A stretch of DNA of 64,000 nucleotides. Origin: an uncultured Pseudomonadales bacterium (GTDB lineage: Bacteria; Patescibacteriota; Microgenomatia; UBA1400; Chazhemtobacteraceae). The stretch is from positions 651,786 through 715,785 of the forward strand of contig CAYQZQ010000001.1 in assembly GCA_964422035.1 (NCBI GenBank). The letters run 5' to 3'. Positions 4,685 through 41,604 of this stretch are shown in pieces (positions within the stretch are counted from its first letter, which is position 1; every line of letters starts with the position of its first letter). A program made the translations under genes and the position numbers. A model generated the notes under the pieces. The model made no database searches and was not told where the DNA came from. It saw only the letters and a program-made list of their open reading frames with translations.

Positions 4685-4731
4685 TGATTTGATTATATCA
4701 ACCTGAGTTAGTAATGGAAACTTGGATTTTG

Positions 4732-18317: not shown

Positions 18318-18715
18318 GGGGACGTTTCGGCTTCGACGAGTATGTACTTTAACAACAGCAAGCTAAGCTGAGTCAACTTATGAAACTGACTTAAAACAAA
18401 ACATGAGGATTCTATCCTTGCTAACATAACTTTCTCGGAAGGGGAAGATTATGTTCCGGCCACTTCAGGCTATGCTTACGCATATGCTTAAAAGTGAAAG
18501 GCGTTTTTAGGTAAGATGTCTGGGGCAAGCCTAAAAGCGTTTACTTACTCAGACTGCAAAAATCAGAGCTGACCTAACTGATTTTTAAGAATTTTGGTCA
18601 AACTTTATGTTGAGGTTTGTTTATTGGCTGGCATAAAGCATTACAATAAACTAAGCTTGTAGAAGTTGTTTAGGATCATGTTCGGACGTGGGTTCGAATC
18701 CCACCGTCTCCACCA
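18318..18715 (+). ncRNA. ssrA: tmRNA (SsrA)
   Basis: 5' end GGGGACGTTTCGGCTTCGACG pairs with the 3' end CGTCTCCACCA. The T-arm GGTTCGAATCC is present. Candidate tag ORF 18420..18491 reads ANITFSEGEDYVPATSGYAYAYA*. Confidence 0.85.
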
Positions 18716-19458: not shown

Positions 19459-19543
19459 GGTGGGGTGCTCCGAATTGGTTAAGGAACCGGTCTTGAAAAC
19501 CGGCGCCCGCAAGGGCTTGTGGGTTCGAGTCCCACCCCCACCG
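19459..19543 (+). tRNA. tRNA-Ser (anticodon TGA), type II with long variable arm
   Basis: Acceptor GGTGGGG/CCCCACC, anticodon loop CTTGAAA, T-loop TTCGAGT. The D-arm appears to carry one extra nucleotide. Confidence 0.75.
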
Positions 19544-19587
19544 CAGATATAGTTGAGTATTGTTTTGGGTTATGTTAGGGTGAAGGT

Positions 19588-20502
19588 ATGAGGGCAATAA
19601 TGGAAGAGAGGGTTCAAAGAGATTTTTTTAGAAAGATTAAGAATGTTTCGGGTTTATCAAACAGAGAATTGGGAAAGTTGGTTGATCTTAAAGCAAACTC
19701 TTTTGGGGATTGGAGTAGAGGGAGAACGAGTCCAACATATACGAAGTTGAAATATTTAGGAAATCGATTTGGTGTCAAGATTCCTGTCAATATAGAGACA
19801 AGGTGTGAAAATTGGGGACAAGTTAGAGGGGGAAAGGTTTCTCAGAAGATGAGAAAAATGGCACCTGAAAAGTATGAGGGAAGTGGTGTGCTATTAAGAA
19901 ATAAATTTAGCGATCCTTTTTGCTCGAAAGAGTTAGCTGAGTTTGTGGGCATTGTCTTGGGTGATGGTTGTTTGACCGGAAGTCAGTTGCAGATAACCTT
20001 GAATTCTGTAGCGGATGAAAAGTATGTTAAATATGTAAAAAGTTTGATATTGAGATTGTTTAGATACAAAGCAGGTATTTATAAGAAAAAAGATAGTAAA
20101 GCAGTTGTGGTGTGTGTGACAGGAGTTAATTTTGTAAATTTAATGAAGAAATATGGCTTGGAGACAGGAGATAAAGTTAGAAATCAGGTGTCTGTTCCAG
20201 GCTGGATTAGAAAGACAAAGAAGTTTAGAAAATCCTGCTTGAGGGGTTTGGTGGATACAGATGGTGGAATTCATTGGCATAAATATAAAATTCAAAATAA
20301 GCAATATAGTTATCTAAAATTGTGTTTTTCGAATAGGTCTGTGCCTTTAAGAAAATTTGTTTTTGAAACACTTGAGATGATGGGATTTAATCCCAAAATG
20401 GCAATGAATAAGCATGTGTGGTTGTATTCTGATGAAGAGTCTCGAAAGTATCTGAAAGTAATTGGTAGCTCTAATTTTAGGCTGAACAGGATGATTAGAT
20501 GA
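19588..20502 (+). CDS. HTH + double-motif LAGLIDADG homing-endonuclease-like protein
   Basis: FVGIVLGDGCL and LRGLVDTDGGIHWHK motifs. The N-terminus is HTH-like (LSNRELGKLVDL). Confidence 0.65.
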   Translation: MRAIMEERVQRDFFRKIKNVSGLSNRELGKLVDLKANSFGDWSRGRTSPTYTKLKYLGNRFGVKIPVNIETRCENWGQVRGGKVSQKMRKMAPEKYEGSGVLLRNKFSDPFCSKELAEFVGIVLGDGCLTGSQLQITLNSVADEKYVKYVKSLILRLFRYKAGIYKKKDSKAVVVCVTGVNFVNLMKKYGLETGDKVRNQVSVPGWIRKTKKFRKSCLRGLVDTDGGIHWHKYKIQNKQYSYLKLCFSNRSVPLRKFVFETLEMMGFNPKMAMNKHVWLYSDEESRKYLKVIGSSNFRLNRMIR

Positions 20503-20517
20503 TATAATTACTTGCGA

Positions 20518-20607
20518 GGAGACGTGCCCGGAATTGGTATCGGAGCGCCCTGCTAAGGCGTCGCCCTGTTTAAGGGCTTGTGGGTTCGAGTCCCACCGTC
20601 TCCGCCA
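20518..20607 (+). tRNA. tRNA-Ser (anticodon GCT)
   Basis: Acceptor GGAGACG/CGTCTCC+G+CCA, anticodon loop CTGCTAA, long variable arm. Confidence 0.75.
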
Positions 20608-20635
20608 AGATGAATGCAGGTGAGTTTGTGATAGG

Positions 20636-21187
20636 ATGAAACTAATGCCCGAAGAAAAAAAACAAGAGAGTCAAACGGCTCAACCAAGCATAAAAGGAGA
20701 AGAAAAGACTTTATTGGAGTGGAAAAGCTTGGAGAGACCTTTTAAGGAGAGAGGAAGGGATTTTTATAGTACGGTTTTGGTATTGGCGATACTGGTGGGA
20801 GTTATTTTATTCTTTATAGAAGGGCTAATGCCGGTGTTGTTGGTGGCTTCGGTAGTATTTGTGGTGTTTGTTATGTCTAAGGCAGAACCTAGGGTAGTTG
20901 AGCACAAAATAACTACCAGAGGTATAGAGACAGAAAGAAATAAGTTTTGGTGGGATGAGTTGATAATTTTTTGGTTTGAGAAAAAATGGGGGAATGATTT
21001 GGTGCATGTTTTAACTAGAAGAAACTGGCCAAGACAGATACTGCTGGTGTTGCCAGAGAGTGGTGAGGTGAAGAAAGAGAGGATTAAGGAAGTATTGGGT
21101 ACTTATTTGCCTTTGGAGAAACCACCGGATTCGTGGTTGGATAAGGCTGTTAATTGGTTGGGGGAGAAAGTGCCTTTGGAAGAGTAG
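20636..21187 (+). CDS. hypothetical two-TM membrane protein
   Basis: ORF plus hydrophobic segments. No assignable motif. Confidence 0.4.
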   Translation: MKLMPEEKKQESQTAQPSIKGEEKTLLEWKSLERPFKERGRDFYSTVLVLAILVGVILFFIEGLMPVLLVASVVFVVFVMSKAEPRVVEHKITTRGIETERNKFWWDELIIFWFEKKWGNDLVHVLTRRNWPRQILLVLPESGEVKKERIKEVLGTYLPLEKPPDSWLDKAVNWLGEKVPLEE

Positions 21188-21360
21188 AGTTTTGGGTTTT
21201 GATATGAAAGCTAGATAAAATTTGTAGACAAGCCCCTAGTGAGAAGAGGAGATTTAAAAGAAGTATGGGTGGAATTTGTGATTTGTATTATAATAGGGTT
21301 GCCTTAAGAGACAAAATAATGTTCTTTTATCAGGATCTAGCCGATAGGCTAGTTGGAGAA

Positions 21361-21432
21361 GTCCCCGTAGTTTAATGGATAAAACACGGCCCTGCGGAGG
21401 CTGAGCTACAAGTTCGAATCTTGTCGGGGACA
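21361..21432 (+). tRNA. tRNA-Arg (anticodon GCG)
   Basis: Acceptor GTCCCCG/CGGGGAC, anticodon loop CTGCGGA, T-loop TTCGAAT. Confidence 0.65.
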
Positions 21433-21440
21433 CAATTTTT

Positions 21441-21525
21441 GGAGGGTTGGCCGAGTGGTTTAAGGCGCCGATTTCGAAAGTCGGTGGGCTTTATGCCCGC
21501 ACAGGTTCGAATCCTGTACCCTCCG
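21441..21525 (+). tRNA. tRNA-Ser (anticodon CGA)
   Basis: Acceptor GGAGGGT/ACCCTCC, anticodon loop TTCGAAA, long variable arm. Confidence 0.75.
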
Positions 21526-21612
21526 CATAAAACTTCTTTTGCTTATGAGTGGTACTTTAGAGTTTAGCTTGAAGGTATAAATGAGGCTGAATGCGATATA
21601 ATAGTAGTTATT

Positions 21613-21695
21613 GGAGGAGTCGCATAGTGGTCGATTGCACGAGCTTGGAAAGTTCGAGCCGCAAGGCTTCGTGGGTTCGAATCCCACCTCCTCCG
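21613..21695 (+). tRNA. tRNA-Ser (anticodon GGA)
   Basis: Acceptor GGAGGAG/CTCCTCC, anticodon loop TTGGAAA, long variable arm. Confidence 0.75.
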
Positions 21696-21784
21696 CAGAG
21701 CAAATGCGTGTGATAGTTATGCAGATTGTTTGATTAGTTGAGCCTTGAAGCGGCTGAGTTTGAATTATGAGGTAAAATAAAGGC

Positions 21785-25479: not shown

Positions 25480-25809
25480 ATGTTAATGAATTTGGTAGTT
25501 AATGCGATAGCTTTTTATGTGGTGGGTTATTTGGTGCCAGGGATGGTGCTTGAGGGGTGGCAGGCTTTGTTGGTTGTGTCAGTAGTATGGGGGTTGATAA
25601 CAATGTTTGTGAAGCCGGTTTTATCATTTTTGACACTGCCGATTAATGTTTTGAGTCTGGGGCTGTTTTCGTTTATCTTGAATGCCTTGCTTTTGATGTT
25701 GACAGCAAGTTTGGTACCAGGGTTTGGAGTGGAGAGCTTTTTGTCGGCTCTTTTGGCATCGTTGCTTTTGTCTTTGGTGAATGCGGTTTTGACGAGAATG
25801 GGTAGATGA
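25480..25809 (+). CDS. DUF360-like small membrane protein (phage-holin-IV superfamily-like)
   Basis: About 109 aa with 3-4 TM segments. Resembles the recalled DUF360 layout. Confidence 0.4.
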   Translation: MLMNLVVNAIAFYVVGYLVPGMVLEGWQALLVVSVVWGLITMFVKPVLSFLTLPINVLSLGLFSFILNALLLMLTASLVPGFGVESFLSALLASLLLSLVNAVLTRMGR

Positions 25810-26115: not shown

Positions 26116-26187
26116 TTCCCCTGTAGCTCAGCGGTAGAGCGGGTGCCTGTTAAGCACTAGGTCGCTGGTTCGAATCCAGCCGGGGGA
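26116..26187 (+). tRNA. tRNA-Asn (anticodon GTT)
   Basis: D-arm GCTCAGCGGTAGAGC, anticodon loop CTGTTAA, T-loop TTCGAAT. CCA is not encoded. Confidence 0.75.
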
Positions 26188-26223
26188 GCACCTAAATTTA
26201 GCTTTAGATTAGATATACCCCTA

Positions 26224-27689: not shown

Positions 27690-28349
27690 TTACTCGAACT
27701 TAACAGTTTTAACAGCTTCAATCATTTTTTCTTTAACTTTATCCCAACCTATCGTTTGATGCATCCTGGGCATAGGTTGTTGTTCTGCATTCTTAAAATA
27801 AACTAACGATTTCATGATATGAGTTTTACTGTAACCAATTGTTTGATACTTTTTTTCCATAAGTTTACACAATTCATTCAATGTGTACTTATTTAACAAA
27901 AAGTAAAGATCGATAAAGTCCTTTTTACTCCCCCTCACACCGATGGTTTGTAGTTTAGTACAAGCAATATCCTCAATTGAGCTAAGTTGAATATTTTGCC
28001 AATAAGTTGTTGGTGCAATTAGATCATAAGGATACTCTAAAAACTGTAGTTTGACTCCATTGAGAAATGTATTTAGTGTGCCTTCAGCGAGTTCGGTTTG
28101 TTTTAGATTGGCAAACCTAGTTAGTTTTGACTGCAACCTTTGTGGATCAAATGAGTTTTTTATAAAAAAGTCTAGATCTTCAGATTCACGATGTCCAAGT
28201 TGAAGTGACAAAGCTGTCCCGCCGGATAAATAAAATTCATCTAAAAAATTTGGTTGTTTTGTTTGGAAAAGATCTATCAGTTTAGCCGTTTGATTGGGAA
28301 GAGTTTCTGGGAAAAATTGTTTACTATTCACGGTAGGTAAAGGCTCCAA
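27690..28349 (-). CDS. AbiEii/AbiGii-type nucleotidyltransferase toxin family protein
   Basis: LSGGTALSLQLGHRESEDLDFF NTase motif. C-terminal KKDFIDLYFLL. Confidence 0.7.
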   Translation of the reverse strand: MEPLPTVNSKQFFPETLPNQTAKLIDLFQTKQPNFLDEFYLSGGTALSLQLGHRESEDLDFFIKNSFDPQRLQSKLTRFANLKQTELAEGTLNTFLNGVKLQFLEYPYDLIAPTTYWQNIQLSSIEDIACTKLQTIGVRGSKKDFIDLYFLLNKYTLNELCKLMEKKYQTIGYSKTHIMKSLVYFKNAEQQPMPRMHQTIGWDKVKEKMIEAVKTVKFE

Positions 28350-28561
28350 AAATTTTGTGATTTCGGCTCGAGCTTGAGGTGAGGCATCATATTTTTGATT
28401 TGGGTAGTACCTGCTTTCTTCAATAACCAGGATACAGATTTTTCATCTCCTTTGTTAAGTAAGGTTTGGACAATGTATTGTTTATGTTTTTGCCAACTTA
28501 GCTGGCTTAAATCATCGCCCCAAAAGTATTTTTTAGCCTGGGAGGGAATAGTATCTACCAT
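28328..28561 (-). CDS. small partner protein of the AbiEii-like NTase (putative antitoxin, non-AbiEi type)
   Basis: Overlaps the toxin start by 22 nt. FWGDDLSQL...W motif recalled from small proteins preceding AbiEii homologs. Confidence 0.5.
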   Translation of the reverse strand: MVDTIPSQAKKYFWGDDLSQLSWQKHKQYIVQTLLNKGDEKSVSWLLKKAGTTQIKNMMPHLKLEPKSQNFWSLYLP

Positions 28562-28674
28562 ACTTAAATTATACTAAAAATATGACTTAAACGATAGTTT
28601 GGATAGTTTCCTGTAGGGGAGCAGTATTAACTAACTTTACTGAAGGTCTTTTTGTAATATCTATTTAGTGGATT

Positions 28675-29418
28675 TTATTCTCTGAATTTTTTGTTTAGCT
28701 GAATGCCTATAAAAAGAAATATGCCGGCAAAAAGAAGTAGGATAAATAAATCAGTAATAGGGTTGAAATGAGTTTTTCCCTCAATTCCGTATCTGAATAA
28801 ATCATTGGCATAAGACAAGGGTGAGAGGTATGTGGCTGTTTTTGCCCATATAGGTAAGTTTTCGATGGGGATAAAAATGCCGCTGATAAACATTAGGGGA
28901 AGGCGAATAAAGTTAAGCATCATCATGATATCGCCCGGATTTTCTGTTGGGAACATGGCAAACATATTGCCCAGCAGAGAAAAAGATAAAGAGGCAGTAA
29001 TTAGTCCGATGAATAAAATAAGTGGATTGACCAGAGATACTCCGAGGAATAACCAGGTGGTAATTAAACCTAGGGAGGATATGAACAGACTAAATAAAAC
29101 CCCTCCTAAGGCTTTACCTAACACTATGGCGTAGAAAGATATGGGAGCGGAAATAAGCCGATCAAATGTCTTAACCCGTCTTTCTATGGGAATGGCAACT
29201 GGGCCGATTGATGAGGCTGAAAACAAGACGGTCAAAGAAATTAAGCCGGGGATCAGGGCTGAAACTGGGATGTTTCTGCCAACAGCAAAAGAGAGAAACA
29301 TAAATAAAGGGAACATAACTCCAAACATCAAGGTGCCAGGCCGAAGATAATAGATTTTGATATCTTTTTTTGTAATCGCCCAGGCGGCTTTTAAGTTGTT
29401 CATAATTTTTTGGATCAT
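28675..29418 (-). CDS. ABC-2 type transporter permease
   Basis: Six TM segments. ATGA-type overlap with the upstream ATPase. Confidence 0.65.
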   Translation of the reverse strand: MIQKIMNNLKAAWAITKKDIKIYYLRPGTLMFGVMFPLFMFLSFAVGRNIPVSALIPGLISLTVLFSASSIGPVAIPIERRVKTFDRLISAPISFYAIVLGKALGGVLFSLFISSLGLITTWLFLGVSLVNPLILFIGLITASLSFSLLGNMFAMFPTENPGDIMMMLNFIRLPLMFISGIFIPIENLPIWAKTATYLSPLSYANDLFRYGIEGKTHFNPITDLFILLLFAGIFLFIGIQLNKKFRE

Positions 29419-30362
29419 TTGTTTTGAGTTAACTTTGTAAACACATCTTCTAAATTAGGTCCAAGTGTATTCAGGTTGATAATTTTGAGATTGTTCTCAA
29501 GACTGAAGTCCCAAAGTTCAGATAAGACCTTTTCCGGGCTGTTAGTAAATAATTTATATTTATCACCTAATTTTTGAATTTTGTTAACATGAGAGGATTT
29601 AGTAAGGATATTTATTTTTTTTCGAGAAAGGGGTTTATTAAAGGCTGTCTCTATTGATTGGACACTTTGGATCGTCTTTTTTAGATTCTCCGGTGTATCT
29701 ATGGCTGCAATTTTTCCGTGATTAATGATTGCTACCCGGTCACAGGTTTTATTAGCTTCCTCAATGTTGTGGGTGGTTAGAAAAATAGTAATATTTTGGT
29801 GATTGAGGCTATTGATAATTTCTTTGATAATTTTAGCGCTTTCTACATCGAGTCCGGATGTAGGCTCGTCTAAGAATAACAGGCGAGGGTTGTTGATTAG
29901 ACCCATGGCTAGAGTTAGCCTCCGCTTCATTCCTTTAGAGTATGTTTGGACCTTGTCGTCTCTACGATGAAAAAGCTCAAAAGTCTCTAGTAGTTCCTCG
30001 GCTTTTCGACGAGCTTGATTTTTCTCCAGATGGTAAAGATCAGCGGTAAAAATTAGATTCTCCCAGGCGGTTAAGTCCTTATAAATATTTGATTCTTCTG
30101 GGACGATCCCGATTAGTTTTTTTGCCTCAATAATTTCTTTTTCAATATCATGGTCAAAGATTTTTGCTTTGCCACCTGTTGGTTTAGTTAAGCCGGTTAA
30201 TATTCTGATGGTTGTTGTTTTGCCGGCACCGTTTGGTCCCAAAAAACCAAAAACTTCCCCCTTTTCAACCTGGAAAGAGATGTCATTGACAGCTTTTAGT
30301 TGGCCAAATTTCTTGGTAAGGTTATTTACTTTGATTGCTGTCTTATTTTTTTTAGTGGCCAT
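29415..30362 (-). CDS. ABC transporter ATP-binding protein
   Basis: Walker A GPNGAGKTT, signature LSGGMKRRL, Walker B LLFLDEPT. Confidence 0.85.
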   Translation of the reverse strand: MATKKNKTAIKVNNLTKKFGQLKAVNDISFQVEKGEVFGFLGPNGAGKTTTIRILTGLTKPTGGKAKIFDHDIEKEIIEAKKLIGIVPEESNIYKDLTAWENLIFTADLYHLEKNQARRKAEELLETFELFHRRDDKVQTYSKGMKRRLTLAMGLINNPRLLFLDEPTSGLDVESAKIIKEIINSLNHQNITIFLTTHNIEEANKTCDRVAIINHGKIAAIDTPENLKKTIQSVQSIETAFNKPLSRKKINILTKSSHVNKIQKLGDKYKLFTNSPEKVLSELWDFSLENNLKIINLNTLGPNLEDVFTKLTQNK

Positions 30363-30657
30363 CTTGAATTCCCAAAATAGTTAATTTTTCCAATGCTTTG
30401 ATTCCTCTTGGTTCATCTTTTTTGATAAAAAGGCCGGAATTTTCTTTAAGCTTGAAACTTTTTTCATCTTTAATAAACACTCCCTTACCTTGGAGAACTA
30501 GAAAGAAGACGGCGTAGGGTTCGGGGTGGGGTGGTATTTCTTGATTGGCGTCAAGACAAACCAGGGCAACATTAAATGTTTTTGATTTTAGAACATCAGT
30601 TTTTACCGGTCTTGTCTTAGTAAAAGCCTGAGAAGATAAAATATTATCTATTTTCAT
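30352..30657 (-). CDS. cupin-domain protein
   Basis: Small beta-barrel-like sequence with PHPEPYAVFFLVLQGKG. Confidence 0.5.
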   Translation of the reverse strand: MKIDNILSSQAFTKTRPVKTDVLKSKTFNVALVCLDANQEIPPHPEPYAVFFLVLQGKGVFIKDEKSFKLKENSGLFIKKDEPRGIKALEKLTILGIQDGH

Positions 30658-31039
30658 TGGATTTATCCTTTAAATGTTTTTGATAAAATTTGACCATTTT
30701 ATTCATCATTTTTCTTCTTTCAATAATTACTTCTAGCCAGTTTTTTAAAAGTTCTTCGCCTTTTTTGGTTACTTGATAGATTCTTTTGTCAGGCTTTTCT
30801 TCTCCCTTTTGCCACCTGGAAGTTAATAGGCCTTGTTTTTCCATTCTTCGCAGTAGGGTATAGGCAGAACCAAGTTTAATTTTATGCCTGCCTTCGGTTA
30901 AGTCTTCAATTGACTCAACAATTTTATAACCGTAAGAAGGTTTTTCATAAATTACTCTTAAAATCAAAAACTGCACCCAGCGTTTTTCCGGATATTTTTT
31001 ACAATGGTTATTCTTGTTTTTACTATTCATACATAACAT
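30644..31039 (-). CDS. PadR-family transcriptional regulator
   Basis: ILRVIYEKPSYGYKIVESIEDLTEGRHKIKLGSAYTLLRRMEKQGLLTS. Confidence 0.75.
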   Translation of the reverse strand: MLCMNSKNKNNHCKKYPEKRWVQFLILRVIYEKPSYGYKIVESIEDLTEGRHKIKLGSAYTLLRRMEKQGLLTSRWQKGEEKPDKRIYQVTKKGEELLKNWLEVIIERRKMMNKMVKFYQKHLKDKSNENR

Positions 31040-31158
31040 TGTTATACATGGTCAGAGTTTTGTCAATAGGGTTTGAAGTAAAGCTTGAAAGTCAAAAGAA
31101 AAAAATCTTTTTTTCTTTTACAATAACTGATTGACTTAATGGCAATTATAGTTATAAT

Positions 31159-31485
31159 ATGAATGTGAGTTCATATAATTGCTGTTCACCATCAAGTAAG
31201 GAGGCAGATCAAGTTAAGTCACTATCTGTTTTACTTAAATTAGTGAGTGAGGAGAGCCGGTTAGAGATTTTATGCATTCTTTGTTTGGGAGAGCATTGTG
31301 TTTGTGAGATTATGGAGCATGTTGACATGTCTCAAAGTTTAATCTCTCATCATTTGAAGGATTTAAGGGATGGAAATATTGTTTCCAATGAGAAAAAGGG
31401 TGTGCGGGTTTACTATTCTTTGACTGATAAGGGAAAAAAGATTATAAATTTGTTATTTCAAATTTCGCAGGAGGTAAAATTATGA
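31159..31485 (+). CDS. ArsR/SmtB-family metalloregulator
   Basis: RLEILCILCLGEHCVCEIMEHV...SHHLKDL HTH with CxC. Confidence 0.75.
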   Translation: MNVSSYNCCSPSSKEADQVKSLSVLLKLVSEESRLEILCILCLGEHCVCEIMEHVDMSQSLISHHLKDLRDGNIVSNEKKGVRVYYSLTDKGKKIINLLFQISQEVKL

Positions 31486-31739
31486 AAATTGAGGTATTAG
31501 GTTCTGGTTGTTCGGCTTGTGCCAAGTTAAATGAAATTGTAAATCAAGCAGCTGAAGAAATGGGGTTAAAAGAGAGGGTGGAGTATTTAGCTGGTGTTGA
31601 GGGCACTTCTCGAATTATTGAAATGGGAGCTATGAGTAGTCCGGTTTTAGCAATTAATGATCAGGTTGCTACGGTGGGTTTTATTGCCGATATAGAAAAA
31701 ATTAAGCAAGTAATTAATAAGTTTAGGGATAAAAAATAG
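31482..31739 (+). CDS. thioredoxin-like redox-active disulfide protein 2 family
   Basis: 85 aa with a GSGCSAC motif. Operon with ArsR. Confidence 0.6.
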   Translation: MKIEVLGSGCSACAKLNEIVNQAAEEMGLKERVEYLAGVEGTSRIIEMGAMSSPVLAINDQVATVGFIADIEKIKQVINKFRDKK

Positions 31740-31917
31740 TGTATGAGTATATTTGCGCCAGTTCAACGATTTGCAGATTTGGCTACTTACGGATGGTTAG
31801 GAATAGCTGAAGGTTCGTATGCCGGGGACGGAGTTAATTTTTTTATTTACGGTCTCAATGCTTGTGCTAGAAGTGGAGGTTGAAGGTCTTAATTATTCCA
31901 CATTCAAGGTGAAATAA

Positions 31918-32331
31918 TTAGTTGCTGTTTTGACCAGGAGTTCTCATAAATCCGGTACCTACTTGAATATTTTGAGCAGTGATGCTCCCATCAGAATTTG
32001 ATTGCCCAGTGATAATTACACTTGACCCTTCTGCAATATCATCTCTCGAGCTTTCTTCTGATTTACTTACTGTCGTTGAATTGGTTAAGATTATTATCTT
32101 GCTGCTATTATCAGCAAGTTTTACAGTGATACTTGAGTTATCCAAACTTATTACTTCACCTTTTGCGGTGCTTAGTCCACTCCTCGCAGCATTTTTTTGC
32201 ACTTTCATTTGTTCAGAGTTGGCAGGCCAACTAGGCATTTTACTTTCTTGGTATTTCATACCACCATAAAAGCCTCCGCCACCAGTTGCTGCAGCTGTTA
32301 AAACAATTGCGATTATTAAATTATTTTTCAT
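31918..32331 (-). CDS. small secreted Ser/Thr-rich protein (last gene of efflux operon)
   Basis: Signal/TM N-terminus. No assignable motif. Confidence 0.4.
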   Translation of the reverse strand: MKNNLIIAIVLTAAATGGGGFYGGMKYQESKMPSWPANSEQMKVQKNAARSGLSTAKGEVISLDNSSITVKLADNSSKIIILTNSTTVSKSEESSRDDIAEGSSVIITGQSNSDGSITAQNIQVGTGFMRTPGQNSN

Positions 32332-32351
32332 TATTGTTCACCTCCTCTTTA

Positions 32352-33569
32352 TTATTCATATCTTAAGGCGTCAATAGGTTGTAATTTTGCTGCCTTTTGA
32401 GCTGGATACCATCCAAACAGTATTCCTATTACGGCTGAGACTCCAAACGCCAGCAATATTGATTGTATTGACAATATAAACGGTAGATTCATTGAGCTGG
32501 ATATAATAAATGAAGCTCCAATTCCAATTGTTGTTCCAATTACTCCGCCGATAAATGTAATCATCACTGCTTCTGTTAGAAATTGCGAATTAATGATACT
32601 TGCTTTAGCACCCAGAGCCTTTCGAAGGCCAATCTCTCGGGTGCGTTCAGTTACAGTAACAAGCATAATGTTCATAATTCCAATTCCCCCAACAATAAGA
32701 GATATGGCCGCAACTCCTGTAAGAAGGGTAGTGAAAGTGTCGGTTACTGAAGTAACGGTTGAGAGAATATCTTCCTGAGATCTTATTCTAAAGTCAGCTT
32801 GTTCGGGGTTTTTAATTTTATGTCTTGTCAGTAGTAAATTAGTTAACTCCTCTTGTGTTTGAACCATTACCTCTTCGTTTATAGCACTAACTGAAATTGA
32901 GCTAACATAATCGACCCCAAAAAGTAATTTTTGGGCTGTGGTTAGGGGAATAAACACAACATCATCTTGGTTATACATACCGGCTCCGCCCTTTGCTTCG
33001 GTTAAACCTACAACGGTGAAAACCTGTCCATTAATTCTTATTATCTGTCCAACGGGATTTACCCCTTCTCCAAATAGACCTATCGATGTTTCAGGACCCA
33101 GTACGGCTACCTTATTTAGTACACTTATGTTTCTATCAGTGATAAAGTTTCCGGATGAGAGGGTAAGATTTCTGATGTCAGCATATTCAGGGAGTACGCC
33201 ATAAACATTTGTATTTGTGTTGTTTTTACCGACCACTATTTGAGTTTTGGATGCGTATTCTGCTGAAACCTTGTTTACTGTTGTAATTTGAGTAGAAGCG
33301 GCAATTGCTTTAGCGTCATCGTAAGTTAAAGTTTGCACACTTCCTCCGCTAACACCTTTTGAGGATTGAGAACCTGGAGAGATTGTGATCAAGTTTGAAC
33401 CAAGTGACTGAATATTGCTTGTAATAGAAGCTTGAGATGCCTGACCCAAGGACATTAATGCTATTACACTTCCAATGCCAATAATTACTCCAAGCATTGC
33501 AAGGCCTGTTCTGGCCTTATTGAGTGTTAATACCGACAAACTTTCTGCTATTAGTTCTGATAATTCCAT
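32352..33569 (-). CDS. MacB/FtsX-like ABC transporter permease
   Basis: N-terminal TM segment, large periplasmic domain, C-terminal FtsX-like 3-TM segments. Confidence 0.75.
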   Translation of the reverse strand: MELSELIAESLSVLTLNKARTGLAMLGVIIGIGSVIALMSLGQASQASITSNIQSLGSNLITISPGSQSSKGVSGGSVQTLTYDDAKAIAASTQITTVNKVSAEYASKTQIVVGKNNTNTNVYGVLPEYADIRNLTLSSGNFITDRNISVLNKVAVLGPETSIGLFGEGVNPVGQIIRINGQVFTVVGLTEAKGGAGMYNQDDVVFIPLTTAQKLLFGVDYVSSISVSAINEEVMVQTQEELTNLLLTRHKIKNPEQADFRIRSQEDILSTVTSVTDTFTTLLTGVAAISLIVGGIGIMNIMLVTVTERTREIGLRKALGAKASIINSQFLTEAVMITFIGGVIGTTIGIGASFIISSSMNLPFILSIQSILLAFGVSAVIGILFGWYPAQKAAKLQPIDALRYE

Positions 33570-33583
33570 ATTTACTTCTTTTT

Positions 33584-34291
33584 TTAATATTTTTTTTGCT
33601 TTCTGTTATAATTGTCTTCGGCTATTTTGCCATCACGAATTTTTATGATCCTTTTTGCATATTCTGCAATTTCAAGTTCGTGTGTAATCATTAGAATTGT
33701 ATTACCTCTCTCATTTATGTCTTGAAATATCTTCATTAGTTCGATTGCTTGTTTTGTTGCAATGTTTCCGGTCGGCTCGTCGGCAAGTATTATGCTCGGG
33801 TTCATAGAGAGGGCCCTGGCTATTGCCACTCTTTGTTGTTGACCGCCAGAAAGCTGACCGGGAGTATGGTCAAGTCTATCTCCAAGACCCACCATTTCCA
33901 AGTATTTTTTGGCTTTTTTAACCCTGTTTTCTTTAGCAATACCGCCGTACATCATGGGAATAGAGACGTTTTTCAATGCGCTGGTTCTAGGCAAGAGGTT
34001 GTACAATTGGAAGACAAATCCAATTTTTTCATTTCTAATATCGGCCAATTTATCTTCGTTTAAACTTTCGATGTTTTTGCCATCAAGAACGTACTCTCCA
34101 GATGTTGGTTTATCAAGAGCTCCGATTATGTGCATAAGAGTTGACTTTCCTGATCCTGAAGGACCCATTATGGCTACAAATTCACCCTTTCTCACTTTAA
34201 AAGAAACGCTGTCTAGTGCTTTTACCTCAACTTCACCGGTTTTGTATATTTTGGAGATACCTTTTACTTTAATAAGAGATTGTGTTGTCAT
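33584..34291 (-). CDS. ABC transporter ATP-binding protein (MacB/LolD-like)
   Basis: GPSGSGKST, LSGGQQQRVAIARAL, ILADEPTGN. Confidence 0.85.
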   Translation of the reverse strand: MTTQSLIKVKGISKIYKTGEVEVKALDSVSFKVRKGEFVAIMGPSGSGKSTLMHIIGALDKPTSGEYVLDGKNIESLNEDKLADIRNEKIGFVFQLYNLLPRTSALKNVSIPMMYGGIAKENRVKKAKKYLEMVGLGDRLDHTPGQLSGGQQQRVAIARALSMNPSIILADEPTGNIATKQAIELMKIFQDINERGNTILMITHELEIAEYAKRIIKIRDGKIAEDNYNRKQKKY

Positions 34292-34305
34292 AATATTACA
34301 TTGAG

Positions 34306-35559
34306 TTAACGTATCTTCATTCCACCGCCCGAGCTTCCGCCGACCGGGAATATACTTCCACTTTTTGACTCTCCAGATGATTGGGTGGAAGTTGTTGTTC
34401 CTATTATCACCACATCTCCCTCATTTGCTCCCGATAATATTTCAATAGCAGTGTCGCTTGATATGCCCAGTTCCACTGTTTGATTTATTTCTTGATTTTT
34501 TTTAATAACTTTCATGGATGCGGTTTCGCCTTGATAATTAATTGCAGCTGGCGGAACAGTTAAAACATCACTTTTTGTTTTGACAATGATATTTGCTGTT
34601 GCTGCCATGTTTGGTAAAATTTGCTCTGATTTTGTATCAATTTGAACAATGACAGGATAAGTTGTTACGTTGCTGGTTATAGTTCCAACTCTGTCAACAC
34701 TAACGACTTTTCCGGTGAATGTTTTGTCAGGTATTGAATCAAGGATTATTGTTGTTTTTTGTCCTGGCTTAATTTGAGAGACATCAATTTCACTAACATC
34801 AAATGTTGCGATTGGCAGGCCTTCTGTTCCGATGGTGGCTATTCTTTGATTAGCGCGGGCGCCGCTTGATGTTTCTGTGGCGCCGATATTCATTCCTTCA
34901 GCAATGGTTACACTCTTTATAGTGCCGGAACTAGGTGATGTAATTGTGGGTGAAGCGGTTTTGAAAGAAACAGAAGTGGAGTAAAGTTTTGCCTCTGCAG
35001 ATTTTACCGAGTCGTATGCATTATCGTTTGCAACCTCTGCATTGGTTCTATCTTCTTTCGTTTCTAAACTCTCATCATCATCATGGCCTTGAATTTCATC
35101 ATAGACAACAGCCAGTGATGCCTGTGTCTTTCTGTAATTATTGTTTGCGGCGTTTAGTGAACTTTGAGCGTTGATATAGGTTGAGTATGCCGAAGCATAA
35201 TTTTGTTCTCCCTGGACATCAAGATCGATTTCAGCCAGTTTTTGTCCCACAACCACCTCGTCGCCGTCATTGACATAAACTTTGGTTATTGTTCCACTCG
35301 CTTGAGTAGTGACATTTTCTATATTAGATGAAATTACAGTACCCGAAGCGGTAATGGAAGATACTATTGTTTCACGCTTTACCGTGGCTGTTTGGTTAAT
35401 AACTTCTGGTTCACTATTGTTGTTTCTAATAAGAAGAAATGTTACTGTGCCAACAATCAAAATAATAACTACCAGCCGTTTTTTATTTGTGACCGTTGAT
35501 TTAATAAATTTTATTATCTTCTTTTTCATGTCTTTTTTGTTTATATTTACTACTGCCAA
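34306..35559 (-). CDS. HlyD-family periplasmic adaptor (membrane fusion protein)
   Basis: N-terminal TM segment, coiled-coil, beta-barrel domain. Precedes the ABC pair. Confidence 0.65.
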   Translation of the reverse strand: MAVVNINKKDMKKKIIKFIKSTVTNKKRLVVIILIVGTVTFLLIRNNNSEPEVINQTATVKRETIVSSITASGTVISSNIENVTTQASGTITKVYVNDGDEVVVGQKLAEIDLDVQGEQNYASAYSTYINAQSSLNAANNNYRKTQASLAVVYDEIQGHDDDESLETKEDRTNAEVANDNAYDSVKSAEAKLYSTSVSFKTASPTITSPSSGTIKSVTIAEGMNIGATETSSGARANQRIATIGTEGLPIATFDVSEIDVSQIKPGQKTTIILDSIPDKTFTGKVVSVDRVGTITSNVTTYPVIVQIDTKSEQILPNMAATANIIVKTKSDVLTVPPAAINYQGETASMKVIKKNQEINQTVELGISSDTAIEILSGANEGDVVIIGTTTSTQSSGESKSGSIFPVGGSSGGGMKIR

Positions 35560-35666
35560 TTTGTATAGATAAAGGCATCCTATTATTTAAATCTGAAAGA
35601 TTCCTTAAAAAATGAAACACCCCCGCTTAAAAACGAGGGTGTTTTTCCCGCCTTGGGAAGGTATAC

Positions 35667-36179
35667 TTACTCAGTAGCAAACCATCGAGATAGGATGTTT
35701 TGCACAAATTTCGCAATCCTGCCACTTAAGGCTTGTTTGGCAGATTCATCCAAGTTGTGTCTTTCGACAATACTGTCTACACGATTATTGGCTTGTTCTG
35801 TCAGAAACTCTTCCGCATCTTCTTGAGTAGTACCATTTTCAGCTATGATATCACTCATGGATTCATTGTTTTGACAAGCTTTTCGCATCTCTTCACGGGT
35901 TAGTTTCGTAAACTCTTGCATCGCAGCCCCTCTTTCCTCACGGAAGGCCATTTTTGTCTCCCGTCTTGCAGTCACATCTTCCTCTGAAGGGTTTCCCCGC
36001 TCAGCTCTAAAGTCTTCTCTCATCTCTTCGGGAATAAGATGAAACCTGTCTTCATCTCCATCAAACTTGCCTTTTCCGCCAAAACCACCACCAAAAGCTG
36101 ACGCAGATTGTGGGAGAACTAGTGCACCCAGTAAAGCAAGACTAGAAACACCAAGTAGTACCTTTTTTTTCATGTTCAT
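35667..36179 (-). CDS. small secreted charged protein (signal peptide + Glu/Arg-rich)
   Basis: MNMKKKVLLGVSSLALLGALVLPQSASA signal peptide. It sits between the TCS and the efflux genes. Confidence 0.45.
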   Translation of the reverse strand: MNMKKKVLLGVSSLALLGALVLPQSASAFGGGFGGKGKFDGDEDRFHLIPEEMREDFRAERGNPSEEDVTARRETKMAFREERGAAMQEFTKLTREEMRKACQNNESMSDIIAENGTTQEDAEEFLTEQANNRVDSIVERHNLDESAKQALSGRIAKFVQNILSRWFATE

Positions 36180-36313
36180 ATATTTATCACCTCCTTTCGT
36201 TATTTTTCGACCTTGTGTGTCCCAGTAACTATTTCATTTAGTATGTGGTTTACATTAATAACAAAGTCGAATTGTTAGTAATGTATCAATACTTTTTGAA
36301 AAAACACTTAAAG

Positions 36314-37348
36314 TTATAATGGAAGCTTAACTGTAAATTGGGAGCCTTTATTAACTTTGCTTTCCACACTTATACTACCGGAATGTTGATCTACTATTTT
36401 TTTGGCAATTGCAAGTCCTAAACCATAGCCTTCTGCAATTTTTTTAGATCTTGACTTTTCAGCTCTATAAAATCTATCCCAGATGTGAGGTAGATCGCTG
36501 TTCGCAATACCAATACCGGTATCTTTTACGACAATCTCCATACTGCTTTTTAGTTTAAATATTTCTACACTTACACTACCTTTCTCTTTTGTGTATTTTA
36601 TTGCATTATCAATGAGTATGATAAGAAGTTTTTCTATACCATCTTTGTTCCCTTCTAATACTATACTTTGAGACTTAGTTTTAAAGTCTATATTTTTCTT
36701 TTTGGCGATAGGCATGAATCTCTTAGTGATTTTGTCCAATAAATTCTCAATATCAACTTGTTCATAAAAAGCATTCCCACTTTCCTGATTTTTTGCTAAA
36801 AGCAGCAAATCATTTGTCAAACGCTTTAATCCCAAGGCTTCTTCTAAACTACTTGTTATTGCATCTCTTGCCTTTTTAATGTCGAGTTTCTTGTTATCTA
36901 GTGCAACTTCAAGTGTAGTGATTAGTGCGGTTAAAGGTGTTTTGAGTTCATGTGAGGCGTCGGCTACGAATCTTTTTTGCTCGTTCAAAGCTTCTTCAAT
37001 AGGCTTTAGGGTTTTACCTGCTAGAAAATAGCCTGCAGAGGCAGAAAAGACAAATATTGCCGTGTTGGCATAGACGAGGATTTTTAGTATTTGATTTCTT
37101 ACGGCTTCGATATCTTCAGGTAAGATTCGAAGCTGCCTATTTGATAGTCTTGATGGACGAAACGATTCTTCGCTTAAGTTAAACTTTTTTTCAATCATGT
37201 TCATTCTTGTTTGAAATTCATGATTAACCTGGCGATAAATGAAAACACTAAAAGATAGGCTGACAAGCATTATTATAAGAAGATACAGGGCGGTGAGCTT
37301 AATTCTTGCTTTTTTAAACACAATTTTAATCTTGAATGGTATAGCCAA
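36314..37348 (-). CDS. sensor histidine kinase
   Basis: H-box ADASHELKTPL. G-boxes DTGIGI / GYGLGLAI. Confidence 0.85.
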   Translation of the reverse strand: MAIPFKIKIVFKKARIKLTALYLLIIMLVSLSFSVFIYRQVNHEFQTRMNMIEKKFNLSEESFRPSRLSNRQLRILPEDIEAVRNQILKILVYANTAIFVFSASAGYFLAGKTLKPIEEALNEQKRFVADASHELKTPLTALITTLEVALDNKKLDIKKARDAITSSLEEALGLKRLTNDLLLLAKNQESGNAFYEQVDIENLLDKITKRFMPIAKKKNIDFKTKSQSIVLEGNKDGIEKLLIILIDNAIKYTKEKGSVSVEIFKLKSSMEIVVKDTGIGIANSDLPHIWDRFYRAEKSRSKKIAEGYGLGLAIAKKIVDQHSGSISVESKVNKGSQFTVKLPL

Positions 37349-38003
37349 ATCCCCTAACTGTTTTAATTATCTTGGATTTGTTCTGAAACGGTTTTTCAAT
37401 TTTTTTTCTTAAAAAACCCACAAACACTTCCACAGTATTAGGTAACACATCAGAATCATAATTCCACACGTGGCTGATAATCTGATTCCTGTTCACTACC
37501 AAATTTTTATTTCTCATCAGATATTCCAGTATTGAAAATTCCTTTTTTGAAATATCCAAGACTTTTCCTGATCTTTTAACCTGCTTGGTAAGTGTATTTA
37601 ATTCTAAATCCTTTACTTTTAGTACTTGTCCAAGAGATTGTTTGGGGCGCCTTGAAAGAGCGCGTATTCTTGCCATCAATTCAGAAAAAGAAAAAGGCTT
37701 AGCTAAGTAGTCATCGGCACCGGCGTCAAGTCCTTTTACCTTGTCTTCTGTCAAATCTTTTGCTGTTAGCATTAATATTGGAGTGTGATTTTTTTCTTCT
37801 TTTCTTAGTTTTTCACAAATTGTTATCCCACCCATTTCGGGAAGCAAAAGGTCAAGAATTATCACATCGTAATCTTCTGTGCTTGCCAGATCAAAACCCT
37901 TCTCACCGTCATAGGTAATGTCTACGGCGTAGTTATTTTGTTTCAAACCGTCACGAATGGTATTAGCAATTTTGTGCTCGTCTTCAACAATAAGAACTTT
38001 CAT
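37326..38003 (-). CDS. OmpR-family response regulator
   Basis: Receiver MKVLIVEDE...D...K, plus a C-terminal winged helix. Confidence 0.85.
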   Translation of the reverse strand: MKVLIVEDEHKIANTIRDGLKQNNYAVDITYDGEKGFDLASTEDYDVIILDLLLPEMGGITICEKLRKEEKNHTPILMLTAKDLTEDKVKGLDAGADDYLAKPFSFSELMARIRALSRRPKQSLGQVLKVKDLELNTLTKQVKRSGKVLDISKKEFSILEYLMRNKNLVVNRNQIISHVWNYDSDVLPNTVEVFVGFLRKKIEKPFQNKSKIIKTVRGFGYTIQD

Positions 38004-38382: not shown

Positions 38383-39099
38383 TCAGAGTAGCTTAAAGCT
38401 TGAGAGAATCTGGGAGACTTGTTGATCTTGAGTGTTTTGGATTGGGGTGATGTTGACAATAATGACAGAGCTATCTTGAGGGAAGAAGTAGTACTCAGTG
38501 AGAGATTCTGAGTTGTTGATGTACTGGTAGGCAGATTGGTTATTAATTGTGGTTTGGTTGAGGTTGGATGAGGAGTAAGAGTCAAATCTTTGAGCTAGTA
38601 GCTGGGCAACTTGCTGATTGGTCAGGTCTGGGTTTGTGCTATTGCAACCGATGGTGATTTTGGATTGGTCTTGATTGATGGTTTGTGTGGTTATGGGTTT
38701 GGATGAAAGGAGAATGGTATTGGTTTCTTCATCTTGAGCTTGATCGTATATGTACCAACTTTGGGGATGCTTTATTTGGTATTTGCATTTGGTGTCTGTA
38801 AAGGTTTTCCAGTCATTGGTTGAGTTTGGCGTGATGGGGGTGGTTTGAGTATTGATAATTGAGGAGCTGGCTGGTGGTCCAGATTTAATAGTTGATCTTA
38901 TAAAGAAGTACCAAACAATAAAAGCAATAAGTGTGAAAATAGCAAGAGAGGCAAGAGAGATAAGGGTAATGCGGAGGGTTTTGTTATTTTGAGGTTTTTT
39001 GGGGGGTTTGATTGGTTGGTTGGATGGTGGTGTAGGGGGTGGTTGAGTTGTAGGGGGTTGGTTTTGGGGAGTTGGTTGTTGATTTTTGGCTTGTGTCAT
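38383..39099 (-). CDS. membrane-anchored Pro/Thr/Gln-rich low-complexity protein
   Basis: Proline-rich N-terminus, single TM segment, Q/T/N-rich exported domain. Confidence 0.45.
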   Translation of the reverse strand: MTQAKNQQPTPQNQPPTTQPPPTPPSNQPIKPPKKPQNNKTLRITLISLASLAIFTLIAFIVWYFFIRSTIKSGPPASSSIINTQTTPITPNSTNDWKTFTDTKCKYQIKHPQSWYIYDQAQDEETNTILLSSKPITTQTINQDQSKITIGCNSTNPDLTNQQVAQLLAQRFDSYSSSNLNQTTINNQSAYQYINNSESLTEYYFFPQDSSVIIVNITPIQNTQDQQVSQILSSFKLL

Positions 39100-40842: not shown

Positions 40843-41604
40843 TTACTTTTTGGGAGGGAGGGGAATAAGGAGAGAGGTTGTTTTTTTATATTGTTGATAG
40901 TTATTTTGAGAGCCGTATTTTTTTTGGTGGCGTTTTTCCAGGAGAGGAATGCCGGATATGAATAAAAGAAGAATGGTAATAAATAAGGGGCTGGAGATAG
41001 TTAGCCAAGAAAGAGATTGTTGGTATGGCATGGTGATGATAAAAATGCCCAGCCAAATGGTGATCTCGCCAAAATAGTTGGGATGTCGAGAGTATTTCCA
41101 GACACCAGAAGTGATGAAAGTGTTGGGGTGTTTGTTTTTGAAGATAAATTTTTGGAAGTCTGCTAGTGACTCGATGATGAGGCCAACAAAGAAAAGAAGG
41201 GTGCCAAATAAGGTTAAGAGGTGTGGTTGGGGAGAGGGAAGGGTTAAAAGGTATATGCTTGGAAGGGTGATGATCCAGACTGATATACCTTGAAGAAGCC
41301 AGAATTGAGCGAATTTTAAAAAGTTGTTTCGAATTTGATCGAAGCGTTTATCTTTTTTGATTTTTAGGATTCTTAAAGATAAGTAACTGGCTAGTCTGGT
41401 AGCCCAGATGGTGATTAAGATAGAGATGAGAATTTGAGGAAAGGTTAGGGGTGAGTTAGTTAAAGAGAGGAAAAGGATGATGATAATGAAGGTGAGGCCG
41501 TAGGTGAGGTCGGTAAATTTGTCTGTTTGAAGGATGAAGGCAAGAGTAAAGAAGACAAGTTGGGTGATTAAGCTGATAATTAAAGTAAGTAGATAGGGGT
41601 TCAT
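40843..41604 (-). CDS. DUF1295/steroid-5-alpha-reductase-like (ICMT-like) membrane protein
   Basis: SRHPNYFGEITIWLG motif. Multiple TM segments. Confidence 0.65.
   Translation of the reverse strand: MNPYLLTLIISLITQLVFFTLAFILQTDKFTDLTYGLTFIIIILFLSLTNSPLTFPQILISILITIWATRLASYLSLRILKIKKDKRFDQIRNNFLKFAQFWLLQGISVWIITLPSIYLLTLPSPQPHLLTLFGTLLFFVGLIIESLADFQKFIFKNKHPNTFITSGVWKYSRHPNYFGEITIWLGIFIITMPYQQSLSWLTISSPLFITILLLFISGIPLLEKRHQKKYGSQNNYQQYKKTTSLLIPLPPKK

Follow-up and report, generated by a model that had tools for sequence, protein, structure and literature searches.

Gene organization of the locus

We analyzed a 64,000-nucleotide (nt) stretch of contig CAYQZQ010000001.1 (assembly GCA_964422035.1) from an uncultured bacterium, here called the window, in which two overlapping genes on the minus strand encode a small protein and an AbiEii-type nucleotidyltransferase. 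An earlier note had described the pair as a toxin with a small upstream partner, and both open reading frames (ORFs) are present as it described, with the motifs that it quoted (LSGGTALSLQLGHRESEDLDFF in the toxin translation and FWGDDLSQL...W in the partner translation). On the minus strand, the partner gene comes first. It spans positions 28328 to 28561, starts with ATG, and encodes a protein of 77 amino acids (aa) belonging to DUF6922 (PF21956). The toxin gene follows and encodes a DUF1814/AbiEii-family nucleotidyltransferase. Its longest ORF runs from a TTG codon (27690 to 28349; 219 aa), and the start that we favor is a GTG codon (27690 to 28331; 213 aa). At the junction, the GTG start codon of the toxin gene and the TGA stop codon of the partner gene overlap by 4 nt in the sequence GTGA (28328 to 28331, minus strand). 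A TATAAT −10 hexamer was read from the sequence at 28568 to 28573 on the same strand, 6 nt 5′ of the partner ATG.

Assignment of the toxin to the DUF1814 family

Every sequence and fold criterion applied places the toxin in the DUF1814/AbiEii-MenT family, in agreement with the earlier assignment. It matched PF08843 (AbiEii, DUF1814) with an E value of 4.4e-18 and 66.5 bits, compared to a cutoff of 22.5, and the alignment covered toxin residues 27 to 214 and profile positions 3 to 228 of 238. Eleven AbiEii models of PADLOC matched it as well. The toxin carries all four AbiEii/DUF1814 motifs as defined previously (PMC3985639). With residues numbered in the 213-aa product, motif I/II reads L35-S-G37-G38 ... 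R48-E-S50-E-D52-L-D54, with R48 as the family-specific Arg, motif III reads K126-LQTIGV-R133, with the same +7 spacing as K173/R180 of AbiEii, and motif IV (+DxxD) reads K137-D138-F-I-D141. Residues H47, R48, S50, K126, R133, D138, and D141 were invariant in an alignment of 123 toxin homologues. The catalytic Asp pair was intact on the same alignment, with D52 present in 121/123 and D54 in 119/123 homologues.

An AlphaFold2 model of the toxin, built with 36 homologues as input, had a predicted local distance difference test score (pLDDT) of 94.4 and a predicted template modeling (TM) score (pTM) of 0.89. When this model was compared to the PDB with Foldseek, it matched JHP933 (E value of 8.8e-6; TM score of 0.56), MenT1 (1.6e-4; TM score of about 0.5), MenT4 (4.2e-4), and ANT(2'')-Ia (3.8e-3). 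All four are DUF1814 proteins, and the matches had a probability of 1.00 and TM scores of 0.47 to 0.56. Searching the PDB by sequence alone, with a 36-sequence profile, gave marginal matches, the best of which was again JHP933 (E value of 0.28). The link between the toxin and solved structures is therefore made by Pfam and the fold comparison rather than by the PDB sequence search. The toxin search returned 1,539 relatives, with identities of 57 to 80% among the top 120 hits.

The partner protein

The partner matched PF21956/DUF6922 in Pfam (1.2e-9; 38 bits, with a cutoff of 27). It is a basic protein with an isoelectric point (pI) of 9.6, and the median pI of a distant branch of DUF6922 proteins of about 100 aa is 9.97. 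In 22 close homologues of the partner the residues F13 W14 G15 D16 ... W45 ... N70 W72 are invariant, and over 79 diverse DUF6922 members F13, W14, G38, W45, and W72 are conserved in at least 90%. The core of the family consists, in this order, of FW(G)D, W, H-x2-YI[IV]-x2-LL-x-GD, W, and KS-x-NFW. AlphaFold2 predicted a five-helix domain (pLDDT of 82.6). A profile of the 22 homologues, searched against 1.84 billion cluster representatives, returned 833 relatives at an E value of ≤1e-3, and nearly all of these representatives are stand-alone proteins of 72 to 105 aa.

No match to the partner was found in NCBIfam, PADLOC, or PHROGs, AbiEi models included, and in Pfam neither AbiEi_1-4 nor any helix-turn-helix (HTH) family matched it. 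The partner model likewise had no significant Foldseek match among the viral structures of BFVD. The similarities obtained were below significance, namely, to PUF/Pumilio repeats (E value of 0.1 with a 79-sequence profile) and to armadillo repeats (E value above 2 with Foldseek). A few members carry additional domains. In P0282 an N-terminal HTH_17 domain (2.5e-16) is fused to DUF6922, and P0184 has a weak, subthreshold match to an HTH_11/DeoR-type domain (E value of about 1e-3). These rare N-terminal DNA-binding domains would represent the modularity typical of antitoxins. The DUF6922 domain is duplicated in P0216. Four further proteins (P0193, P0194, P0287, and P0389) are chimeric ORFs with both DUF6922 and AbiEii-like stretches, indicating that the two genes are adjacent in further lineages. 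In the searchable literature, we found neither DUF6922 nor PF21956, and no function of the family or association with AbiEii. The family itself is already in Pfam, and it is the pairing with AbiEii that is new to this literature.

The 100-aa branch is the commoner of the two length classes of DUF6922 and has a C-terminal extension of about 25 aa (...CLKK...W.Y). In this branch, there is an overlap of 52 nt between the partner gene and the called start of the toxin gene (L046, 3001 to 3872; L049, 3001 to 3875). The window copy, which is of the 77-aa branch, ends exactly at the toxin start.

Linkage of the partner and toxin genes

The gene pair recurs well beyond the window. Among 43 partner loci in species-representative genomes, an AbiEii homologue lies directly 3′ of the partner gene in 39. 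An AbiEii gene also follows the partner in 6/6 metagenome relatives of a partner that is linked to an RtcB gene in one genome (see below). In the distant 100-aa branch, which occurs in Actinobacteria, Fervidibacterota, and others, an AbiEii gene of about 206 codons follows in 3/3 cases, and the encoded proteins keep HRLSxDLDFF as well as motifs III and IV. The linkage holds in the reverse direction, too. A PF21956 gene was found directly upstream in 3/3 toxin homologues, which had been picked for the length of their contig only. The earlier note had linked the motif of the small upstream protein to small proteins that precede AbiEii homologues, and these counts bear this out for the family.

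Toxin start, putative promoter, and proposed operon structure

The start of the toxin gene was examined by comparing junctions. In 24/39 related loci, the toxin gene starts with an ATG that overlaps the partner stop codon (ATGA), at the place where the window has GTGA, and the other related loci have a gap of 1 to 8 nt or a 1-nt overlap. The NCBI product record for the toxin gene also has 213 aa (P0023). On the basis of the ATGA junctions of the relatives and the 213-aa record, the start is placed at the GTG at 28331, and the toxin gene is most likely 27690 to 28331, with a 4-nt overlap. On the same two lines of evidence, we rejected the 219-aa form with a TTG start and the 22-nt overlap that had been reported before, which applies only to the longest ORF. 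The in-frame TTG is located 18 nt further upstream, within the segment encoding the conserved C-terminal NFW motif of the partner, and a TTG at the −22 offset recurs in 18/39 related loci. The conservation of this segment and the recurrent offset suggest that the TTG is a by-product of the sequence encoding NFW rather than a start. A 4-nt stop/start overlap is a classic arrangement for translational coupling.

Upstream of the partner gene, the sequence reads TAGTATAAT-ttaagt-ATG, with the last T of the hexamer 6 nt before the ATG, and no Shine-Dalgarno sequence was found ahead of this gene. We compared this region in 44 loci (the window and 43 genome loci), with 357 starts of other ORFs from these loci as controls. 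An exact TATAAT ending 5 to 8 nt before the partner start was present in 31/44 loci, and in 22/44 it ended at exactly 6 nt. The corresponding count for the control starts was 22/357 (6%; Fisher P = 6e-22). This geometry of the −10 box would have transcription begin at the A of the ATG or right beside it, which points to a leaderless mRNA. Together with the gene junction, the pattern implies a leaderless, translationally coupled bicistronic operon, for which we infer cotranscription and the transcription start. A generic promoter scan requires a −35 hexamer and therefore missed the −10 box of the cassette, and a generic terminator scan found no terminator after the toxin gene.

A tandem direct repeat of 8 to 9 nt, AAACTATCC AAACTATCG on the coding strand, lies at 28593 to 28609 (minus strand), about 20 to 36 nt upstream of the −10 box. 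Its core, CTATCG(T), recurs at the corresponding position in L001 and L044, the two closest relatives, and not in more distant ones. The repeat is a possible operator, but since it is common only to these two relatives, we regard it as a weak candidate, at low confidence.

An exact TATAAT ending 6 to 8 nt before an ATG was also observed for ORFs elsewhere in the window, nine in all, the partner gene among them, with starts at 26263, 9671, and 26937 on the plus strand and at 28561, 9634, 7492, 4684, 41604, and 11963 on the minus strand. These nine starts and the control rate indicate that this style of start is used by the host and is not exclusive to the cassette, and they suggest that leaderless transcripts are common in the source genome. 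An identical 15-mer, TATAATTTAAGTATG, is found at the starts of the DUF6922 gene and the neighboring S51 peptidase gene. For the M23 peptidase gene, the ATG at 26263 is a more probable start than the TTG at 26224.

Mobility and compositional context

The cassette is mobile, as its changing neighborhoods show. In the closest relative, the toxin is 80% and the partner 78% identical to the window proteins, and no neighboring gene is common to the two loci. The cassette of this relative is flanked by an uncharacterized gene and a Fic gene, and NYN and ORF6N genes lie close by. Another copy adjoins a PIN/PhD pair and a Fic gene. The hosts of partner homologues are labeled as Patescibacteria, Anaerolineae, Verrucomicrobiota, and several metagenome-assembled genomes (MAGs) labeled as Proteobacteria.

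In the window, plus-strand genes for an M23 peptidase and an S51 peptidase converge on the 3′ end of the toxin gene, and an operon encoding a PadR regulator, a cupin, an ABC ATPase, and an ABC-2 permease ends 113 nt upstream of the partner ATG (Pfam assignments). The flanking peptidase and ABC transporter genes are thus as the earlier note gave them. The isolation of the pair as an island holds only in part, as the cassette is at the edge of a block of about 10 kb with transporters and regulators. From GC skew and GC content, this compositionally atypical block was delimited at 27690 to 38003 (10.3 kb; no strand assigned), and the toxin gene, with a GC content of 0.33 and an atypical skew, is its first gene. 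Besides the toxin-partner pair and the PadR-cupin-ABC-2 transporter operon, the block contains an ArsR regulator, a DUF5666 protein, an HlyD/MacB-type efflux system, and a histidine kinase with a response regulator (Pfam). Minus-strand genes inside the block have plus-strand GC skews of −0.21 to +0.19 and GC contents of 0.31 to 0.44, compared to skews of 0.17 to 0.37 and GC contents of 0.40 to 0.47 for well-supported minus-strand genes outside it. These values fit acquired or rearranged accessory DNA with the cassette at its edge. We treat the block as the surroundings of the cassette, outside its proposed mechanism.

The source organism is apparently a member of the candidate phyla radiation (Beckwithbacteria-like). 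The composition of the window as a whole is unusual. Its plus strand (1 to 64000) has 27.9% G and 12.8% C, and 2-kb bins have skews of 0.3 to 0.65, largely independent of gene strand and far above ordinary replication-strand skew. A second stretch, at 46023 to 47912, also departs from this skew (−0.2 to +0.2), has a lower GC content, and coincides with a 629-aa ORF that has no Pfam match. Both skew-breaking stretches are probably acquired or inverted DNA. Several long minus-strand ORFs have plus-strand skews of 0.5 to 0.6 (38383 to 39099, 40843 to 41604, 51574 to 52542, and 57299 to 58048), and for the one of these that was checked (38383 to 39099), no Pfam match was found. The minus strand is poor in G and therefore has few stop codons, and some of these long minus-strand ORFs may be spurious shadow ORFs.

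In four independent loci (L001, ~4000 to 4882; L033, 2802 to 3854; L044, 8917 to 10002; and L053, 21 to 1124), a Fic/DOC gene adjoins the cassette or the DUF6922 gene, and in two of these, L001 and L033, the AbiEii gene has been lost. This co-occurrence could reflect a simple clustering of toxin-antitoxin genes in islands.

Among the other features of the window, an Rfam search found a full-length tmRNA at 18318 to 18715 (plus strand; 126 bits) that was not reported by ARAGORN, and no Rfam match was found in the cassette or its vicinity. Four tRNA-Ser genes (TGA, GCT, CGA, and GGA) and one tRNA-Arg gene lie among protein-coding ORFs at 19459 to 21696 (plus strand), and a tRNA-Asn gene lies at 26117 to 26189, some 1.5 kb away from the cassette's 3′ end. 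MenT3 prefers tRNA-Ser. A 109-aa protein encoded at 25480 to 25809 (plus strand) matched Phage_holin_4_2 (PF04020; 1.5e-28). Its gene is flanked by thymidine kinase and pterin-4a-carbinolamine dehydratase genes, with no other phage genes nearby.

Proposed mechanism

Read as a whole, the locus is probably a mobile two-gene cassette of the toxin-antitoxin type. The comparisons show to which families both proteins belong, that their motifs are conserved, that the genes are linked, how promoter and junction are arranged, and that the cassette moves. Within this reading, we infer that the nucleotidyltransferase is toxic and acts on tRNA, that the partner works as an antitoxin by way of phosphorylation, and where transcription starts, along with a role in defense. 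By analogy with MenT1, MenT3, MenT4, and AbiEii, the toxin would most likely add nucleotides to the 3′ CCA ends of tRNA, an addition that would block aminoacylation and arrest translation. MenT1, MenT3, and MenT4 have this activity and block aminoacylation in this way (PMC7450476, PMC10435456). The DUF6922 partner would replace the usual AbiEi/COG5340, COG4861, or MenA1 antitoxin and would most likely neutralize the toxin by direct binding. Both genes would be expressed as a single operon from the −10 box 6 nt before the partner ATG, on a leaderless mRNA, and translation of the toxin would be coupled to that of the partner via the 4-nt GTGA overlap, tying toxin synthesis to antitoxin synthesis. 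Such coupling is compatible with the formation of a toxin-partner complex.

For the neutralization itself, we favor a type VII-like mechanism, in which the partner would induce autophosphorylation of the toxin at Ser50, over the fallback of simple, type II-like sequestration. Taken by itself this step is a tentative proposal that may well prove wrong. The preference comes from the invariant Ser50 in the R-x-S-x-D-x-D loop. Ser50 lies two residues before the first catalytic Asp and aligns with MenT3 S78, MenT4 S67, MenT1 T39, and AbiEii T65. The spacing of R48-x-S50-x-D52 is that of R76/S78/D80 in MenT3, S67/D69 in MenT4, and R63/T65/D67 in AbiEii, and the Ser is kept in distant DUF6922-linked toxins (HRLSxDLDFF). 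The mutually unrelated MenA1 and MenA3 induce autophosphorylation of their toxins at T39 and S78, respectively (PMC11375011), and a 2026 preprint reports that AbiEi likewise acts via T65 of AbiEii (bioRxiv 10.64898/2026.01.19.700257). The earlier label of the family as a type IV system is out of date, as MenAT1 and MenAT3 are now classified as type VII in the former study and AbiE has been reclassified as type VII in the latter.

Several observations weigh against the proposed reading of the locus or parts of it. The partner does not detectably resemble any known antitoxin, its role being read solely from gene order and linkage, and it had no significant match in the PDB by phmmer, by the 79-sequence profile, or by Foldseek. 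The spacer between GG and DxD in the toxin is 13 residues, compared to 15 to 16 in AbiEii. DUF1814 includes enzymes that are not toxins, such as ANT(2'')-Ia, and not all of its genes are toxin genes (PMC3985639). According to the 2026 preprint, MenT4 has the equivalent Ser and yet is neither phosphorylated nor bound by MenA4, indicating that a conserved Ser is no proof of a type VII mechanism. With regard to expression, about 6% of other ORF starts also have a −10 box directly 5′ of the ATG. Finally, 4/43 partner loci have no intact toxin gene beside the partner: L038 retains a 52-aa toxin remnant, L033 has an orphan partner beside a Fic gene and an HTH gene, L001 has a Fic gene after the partner, and in L037 the partner overlaps an intein-containing RtcB gene by 4 nt. 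Partner copies without a linked nucleotidyltransferase, which had been named beforehand as evidence against the pairing, do therefore exist, but they are rare and apparently decayed. Frameshifted or truncated toxin genes beside intact partner genes were found in L002, L029, and L038.

The overlapping pair of L037 (3977 to 7116; contig shared with L054) is in a Shapirobacteria MAG, and its RtcB gene encodes a tRNA ligase of 965 aa with an intein that has a LAGLIDADG domain. DUF6922-RtcB as a recurrent alternative pairing was ruled out, as the six nearest relatives of this partner precede AbiEii genes, and the pairing is best read as a one-off replacement.

Alternative explanations

The 77-aa ORF might be a remnant in a degenerate AbiE system, that is, a two-domain AbiEi (COG5340) without its winged-helix N terminus, as the earlier note had considered alongside a distinct antitoxin family. 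It does occupy the abiEi position, upstream of and overlapping abiEii, and a very weak, subthreshold AbiEi_4 match was obtained, only in the HTH part of the fusion protein P0282. However, DUF6922 proteins are 72 to 105 aa long across the family's 833 representatives, no AbiEi model of Pfam or PADLOC matches the partner, and it has no match in sequence or fold to AbiEi (6Y8Q) or to any other PDB entry. The conserved −10 box abuts the partner ATG, leaving no place for a winged HTH portion lost upstream, and merely 113 nt (28562 to 28674) separate this ATG from the stop codon of the ABC-2 permease gene. Since the family is intrinsically small, a truncated AbiEi is rejected as highly improbable. 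The view that the partner is too short for an AbiEi and forms a family of its own, now identified as PF21956, is the one that fits.

It is also unlikely, although less so, that the partner is a nucleic acid-binding protein instead of a toxin-binding inhibitor, acting either solely as an autoregulator or as a tRNA/RNA binder that shields the target (type IV) or directs the enzyme. Its basic charge would agree with such a role, as would the PUF and armadillo similarities of its helix-G-D-helix core, the tandem repeat upstream of the promoter, and the genome in which the DUF6922 gene overlaps the RtcB tRNA ligase gene without an AbiEii gene. These similarities are below significance, though, no HTH family matches the partner, and the RtcB neighbor is a one-off. 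The separate HTH domain added in some members suggests that DUF6922 itself is not the DNA-binding part, and the best-studied DUF1814 antitoxins (MenA1, MenA3, and AbiEi) all contact the toxin. A specific form of this idea, drawn from the basic charge, the subsignificant PUF similarity of the H-x2-YI[IV]-x2-LL-x-GD core, and the single RtcB coupling, is that DUF6922 is a PUF/armadillo-like helical unit that recognizes the tRNA 3′ end. The partner would then shield or select the tRNA substrate (as a type IV antitoxin or a specificity factor) or present the substrate-binding cleft for autophosphorylation, rather than being a plain inhibitor. We consider this quite improbable; if true, DUF6922 would form a class of minimal DUF1814 regulators with a new structure. 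A non-toxic enzyme is little more probable. Here the nucleotidyltransferase would act on small molecules or antibiotics, as does ANT(2'')-Ia, or modify RNA in a housekeeping role, with DUF6922 as an accessory subunit. ANT(2'')-Ia is in DUF1814 and among the fold matches of the toxin (E value of 3.8e-3), the family includes genes that do not encode toxins (PMC3985639), the toxin homologues are very well conserved (57 to 80% identity among the top 120 hits), and the window copy adjoins efflux and transporter genes. On the other hand, JHP933, MenT1, and MenT4 are better fold matches than ANT(2'')-Ia, and the motif III and IV residues required for the toxicity of AbiEii and MenT are invariant. The cassette moves among unrelated neighborhoods and phyla and adjoins PIN/Phd and Fic genes, and the decayed toxin genes beside intact partners (L002, L029, and L038) are the pattern expected of addiction modules. 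A two-gene toxin-antitoxin-type cassette thus remains the reading that we prefer.

Comparison with known systems

In function, the cassette would be most similar to MenA1-MenT1 of Mycobacterium tuberculosis (Rv0078B/Rv0078A; PDB 8AN5, 8AN4, and 8RR5), but nothing links DUF6922 to MenA1 by homology. Both have a compact DUF1814 toxin (about 185 to 195 aa for MenT1 and 213 aa here), an upstream antitoxin without a DNA-binding domain (68 aa for MenA1 [PMC7450476] and 77 aa for the partner), and a phosphoacceptor residue, or its candidate, two residues before the first Asp (T39 in MenT1 and S50 here). However, MenA1 is described as related to MazE and as largely a single extended helix, whereas a folded domain of five helices is predicted for DUF6922, and the sequence identity between MenT1 and the toxin is only about 15%. 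The partner did not match the MenAT1 complex 8AN5 in the PDB as a sequence, as a 79-sequence profile, or as a model, while the toxin model recovered the toxin chains of 8AN5 from the same PDB copy.

AbiEi-AbiEii (of Lactococcus pNP40 and Streptococcus agalactiae SAG1284/1285), MenA3-MenT3, and MenA4-MenT4 have toxins of the same PF08843 family with the four motifs. The cassette has in common with AbiE a bicistronic organization with the antitoxin gene first, overlapping genes, and the R-x-[ST]-x-D-x-D loop. In contrast, the AbiE, MenA3, and MenA4 antitoxins are COG5340 proteins of 170 to 300 aa that combine a winged helix with a C-terminal domain and autoregulate via inverted repeats, while the partner, at 77 aa, belongs to DUF6922 and lacks a recognizable DNA-binding domain. 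The toxin is also about 70 to 80 residues shorter than AbiEii or MenT3. As the defining COG5340 antitoxin is absent, the cassette is not AbiE in the strict sense.

The best structural match and the best sequence-profile match of the toxin in the PDB were both to JHP933 of Helicobacter pylori (4OK0 and 4O8S), a protein of comparable length (about 230 aa) that shares the ...R-F-S-E-D-L-D-F motif. A stand-alone protein from a plasticity zone, JHP933 is a putative nucleotidyltransferase for which the literature covered mentions no antitoxin. We know of no DUF6922 partner of JHP933. The SanaTA, SdenTA, and RlegTA systems, which came from a shotgun-cloning screen, also combine a DUF1814 toxin with an adjacent small-to-medium antitoxin gene. 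Their antitoxins have 136 to 205 aa and are homologous or structurally related to COG5340/AbiEi, whereas DUF6922 is not. According to the 2026 preprint (bioRxiv 10.64898/2026.01.19.700257), which cites the finding, SanaTA confers defense against T7 phage that lacks Gp4.5.

Implications

Few toxin-antitoxin and defense effectors are as abundant as DUF1814 toxins such as AbiEii and MenT. Current studies propose a unifying model in which the unrelated antitoxins MenA1, MenA3, and AbiEi all cause the toxin to phosphorylate a Ser or Thr in its own active site. If DUF6922 is an antitoxin, it would be a further partner family unrelated to MenA1, MenA3, and AbiEi. The combination of a DUF6922 protein, small enough for easy dissection, with a toxin that has an invariant Ser would allow a clean test of whether induced autophosphorylation belongs to the toxin fold and does not depend on a specific antitoxin. 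The conserved leaderless-type promoter and the 4-nt coupling would likewise provide a simple and testable expression logic. As no AbiEi profile matches the partner, these cassettes would presumably appear as orphan AbiEii genes in the output of tools that require AbiEi, such as PADLOC. The 1,539 toxin relatives and 833 partner representatives are mostly from uncultured bacteria, including Patescibacteria, Chloroflexota, and Armatimonadota, and toxin-antitoxin and defense systems may thus be undercounted in uncultured lineages.

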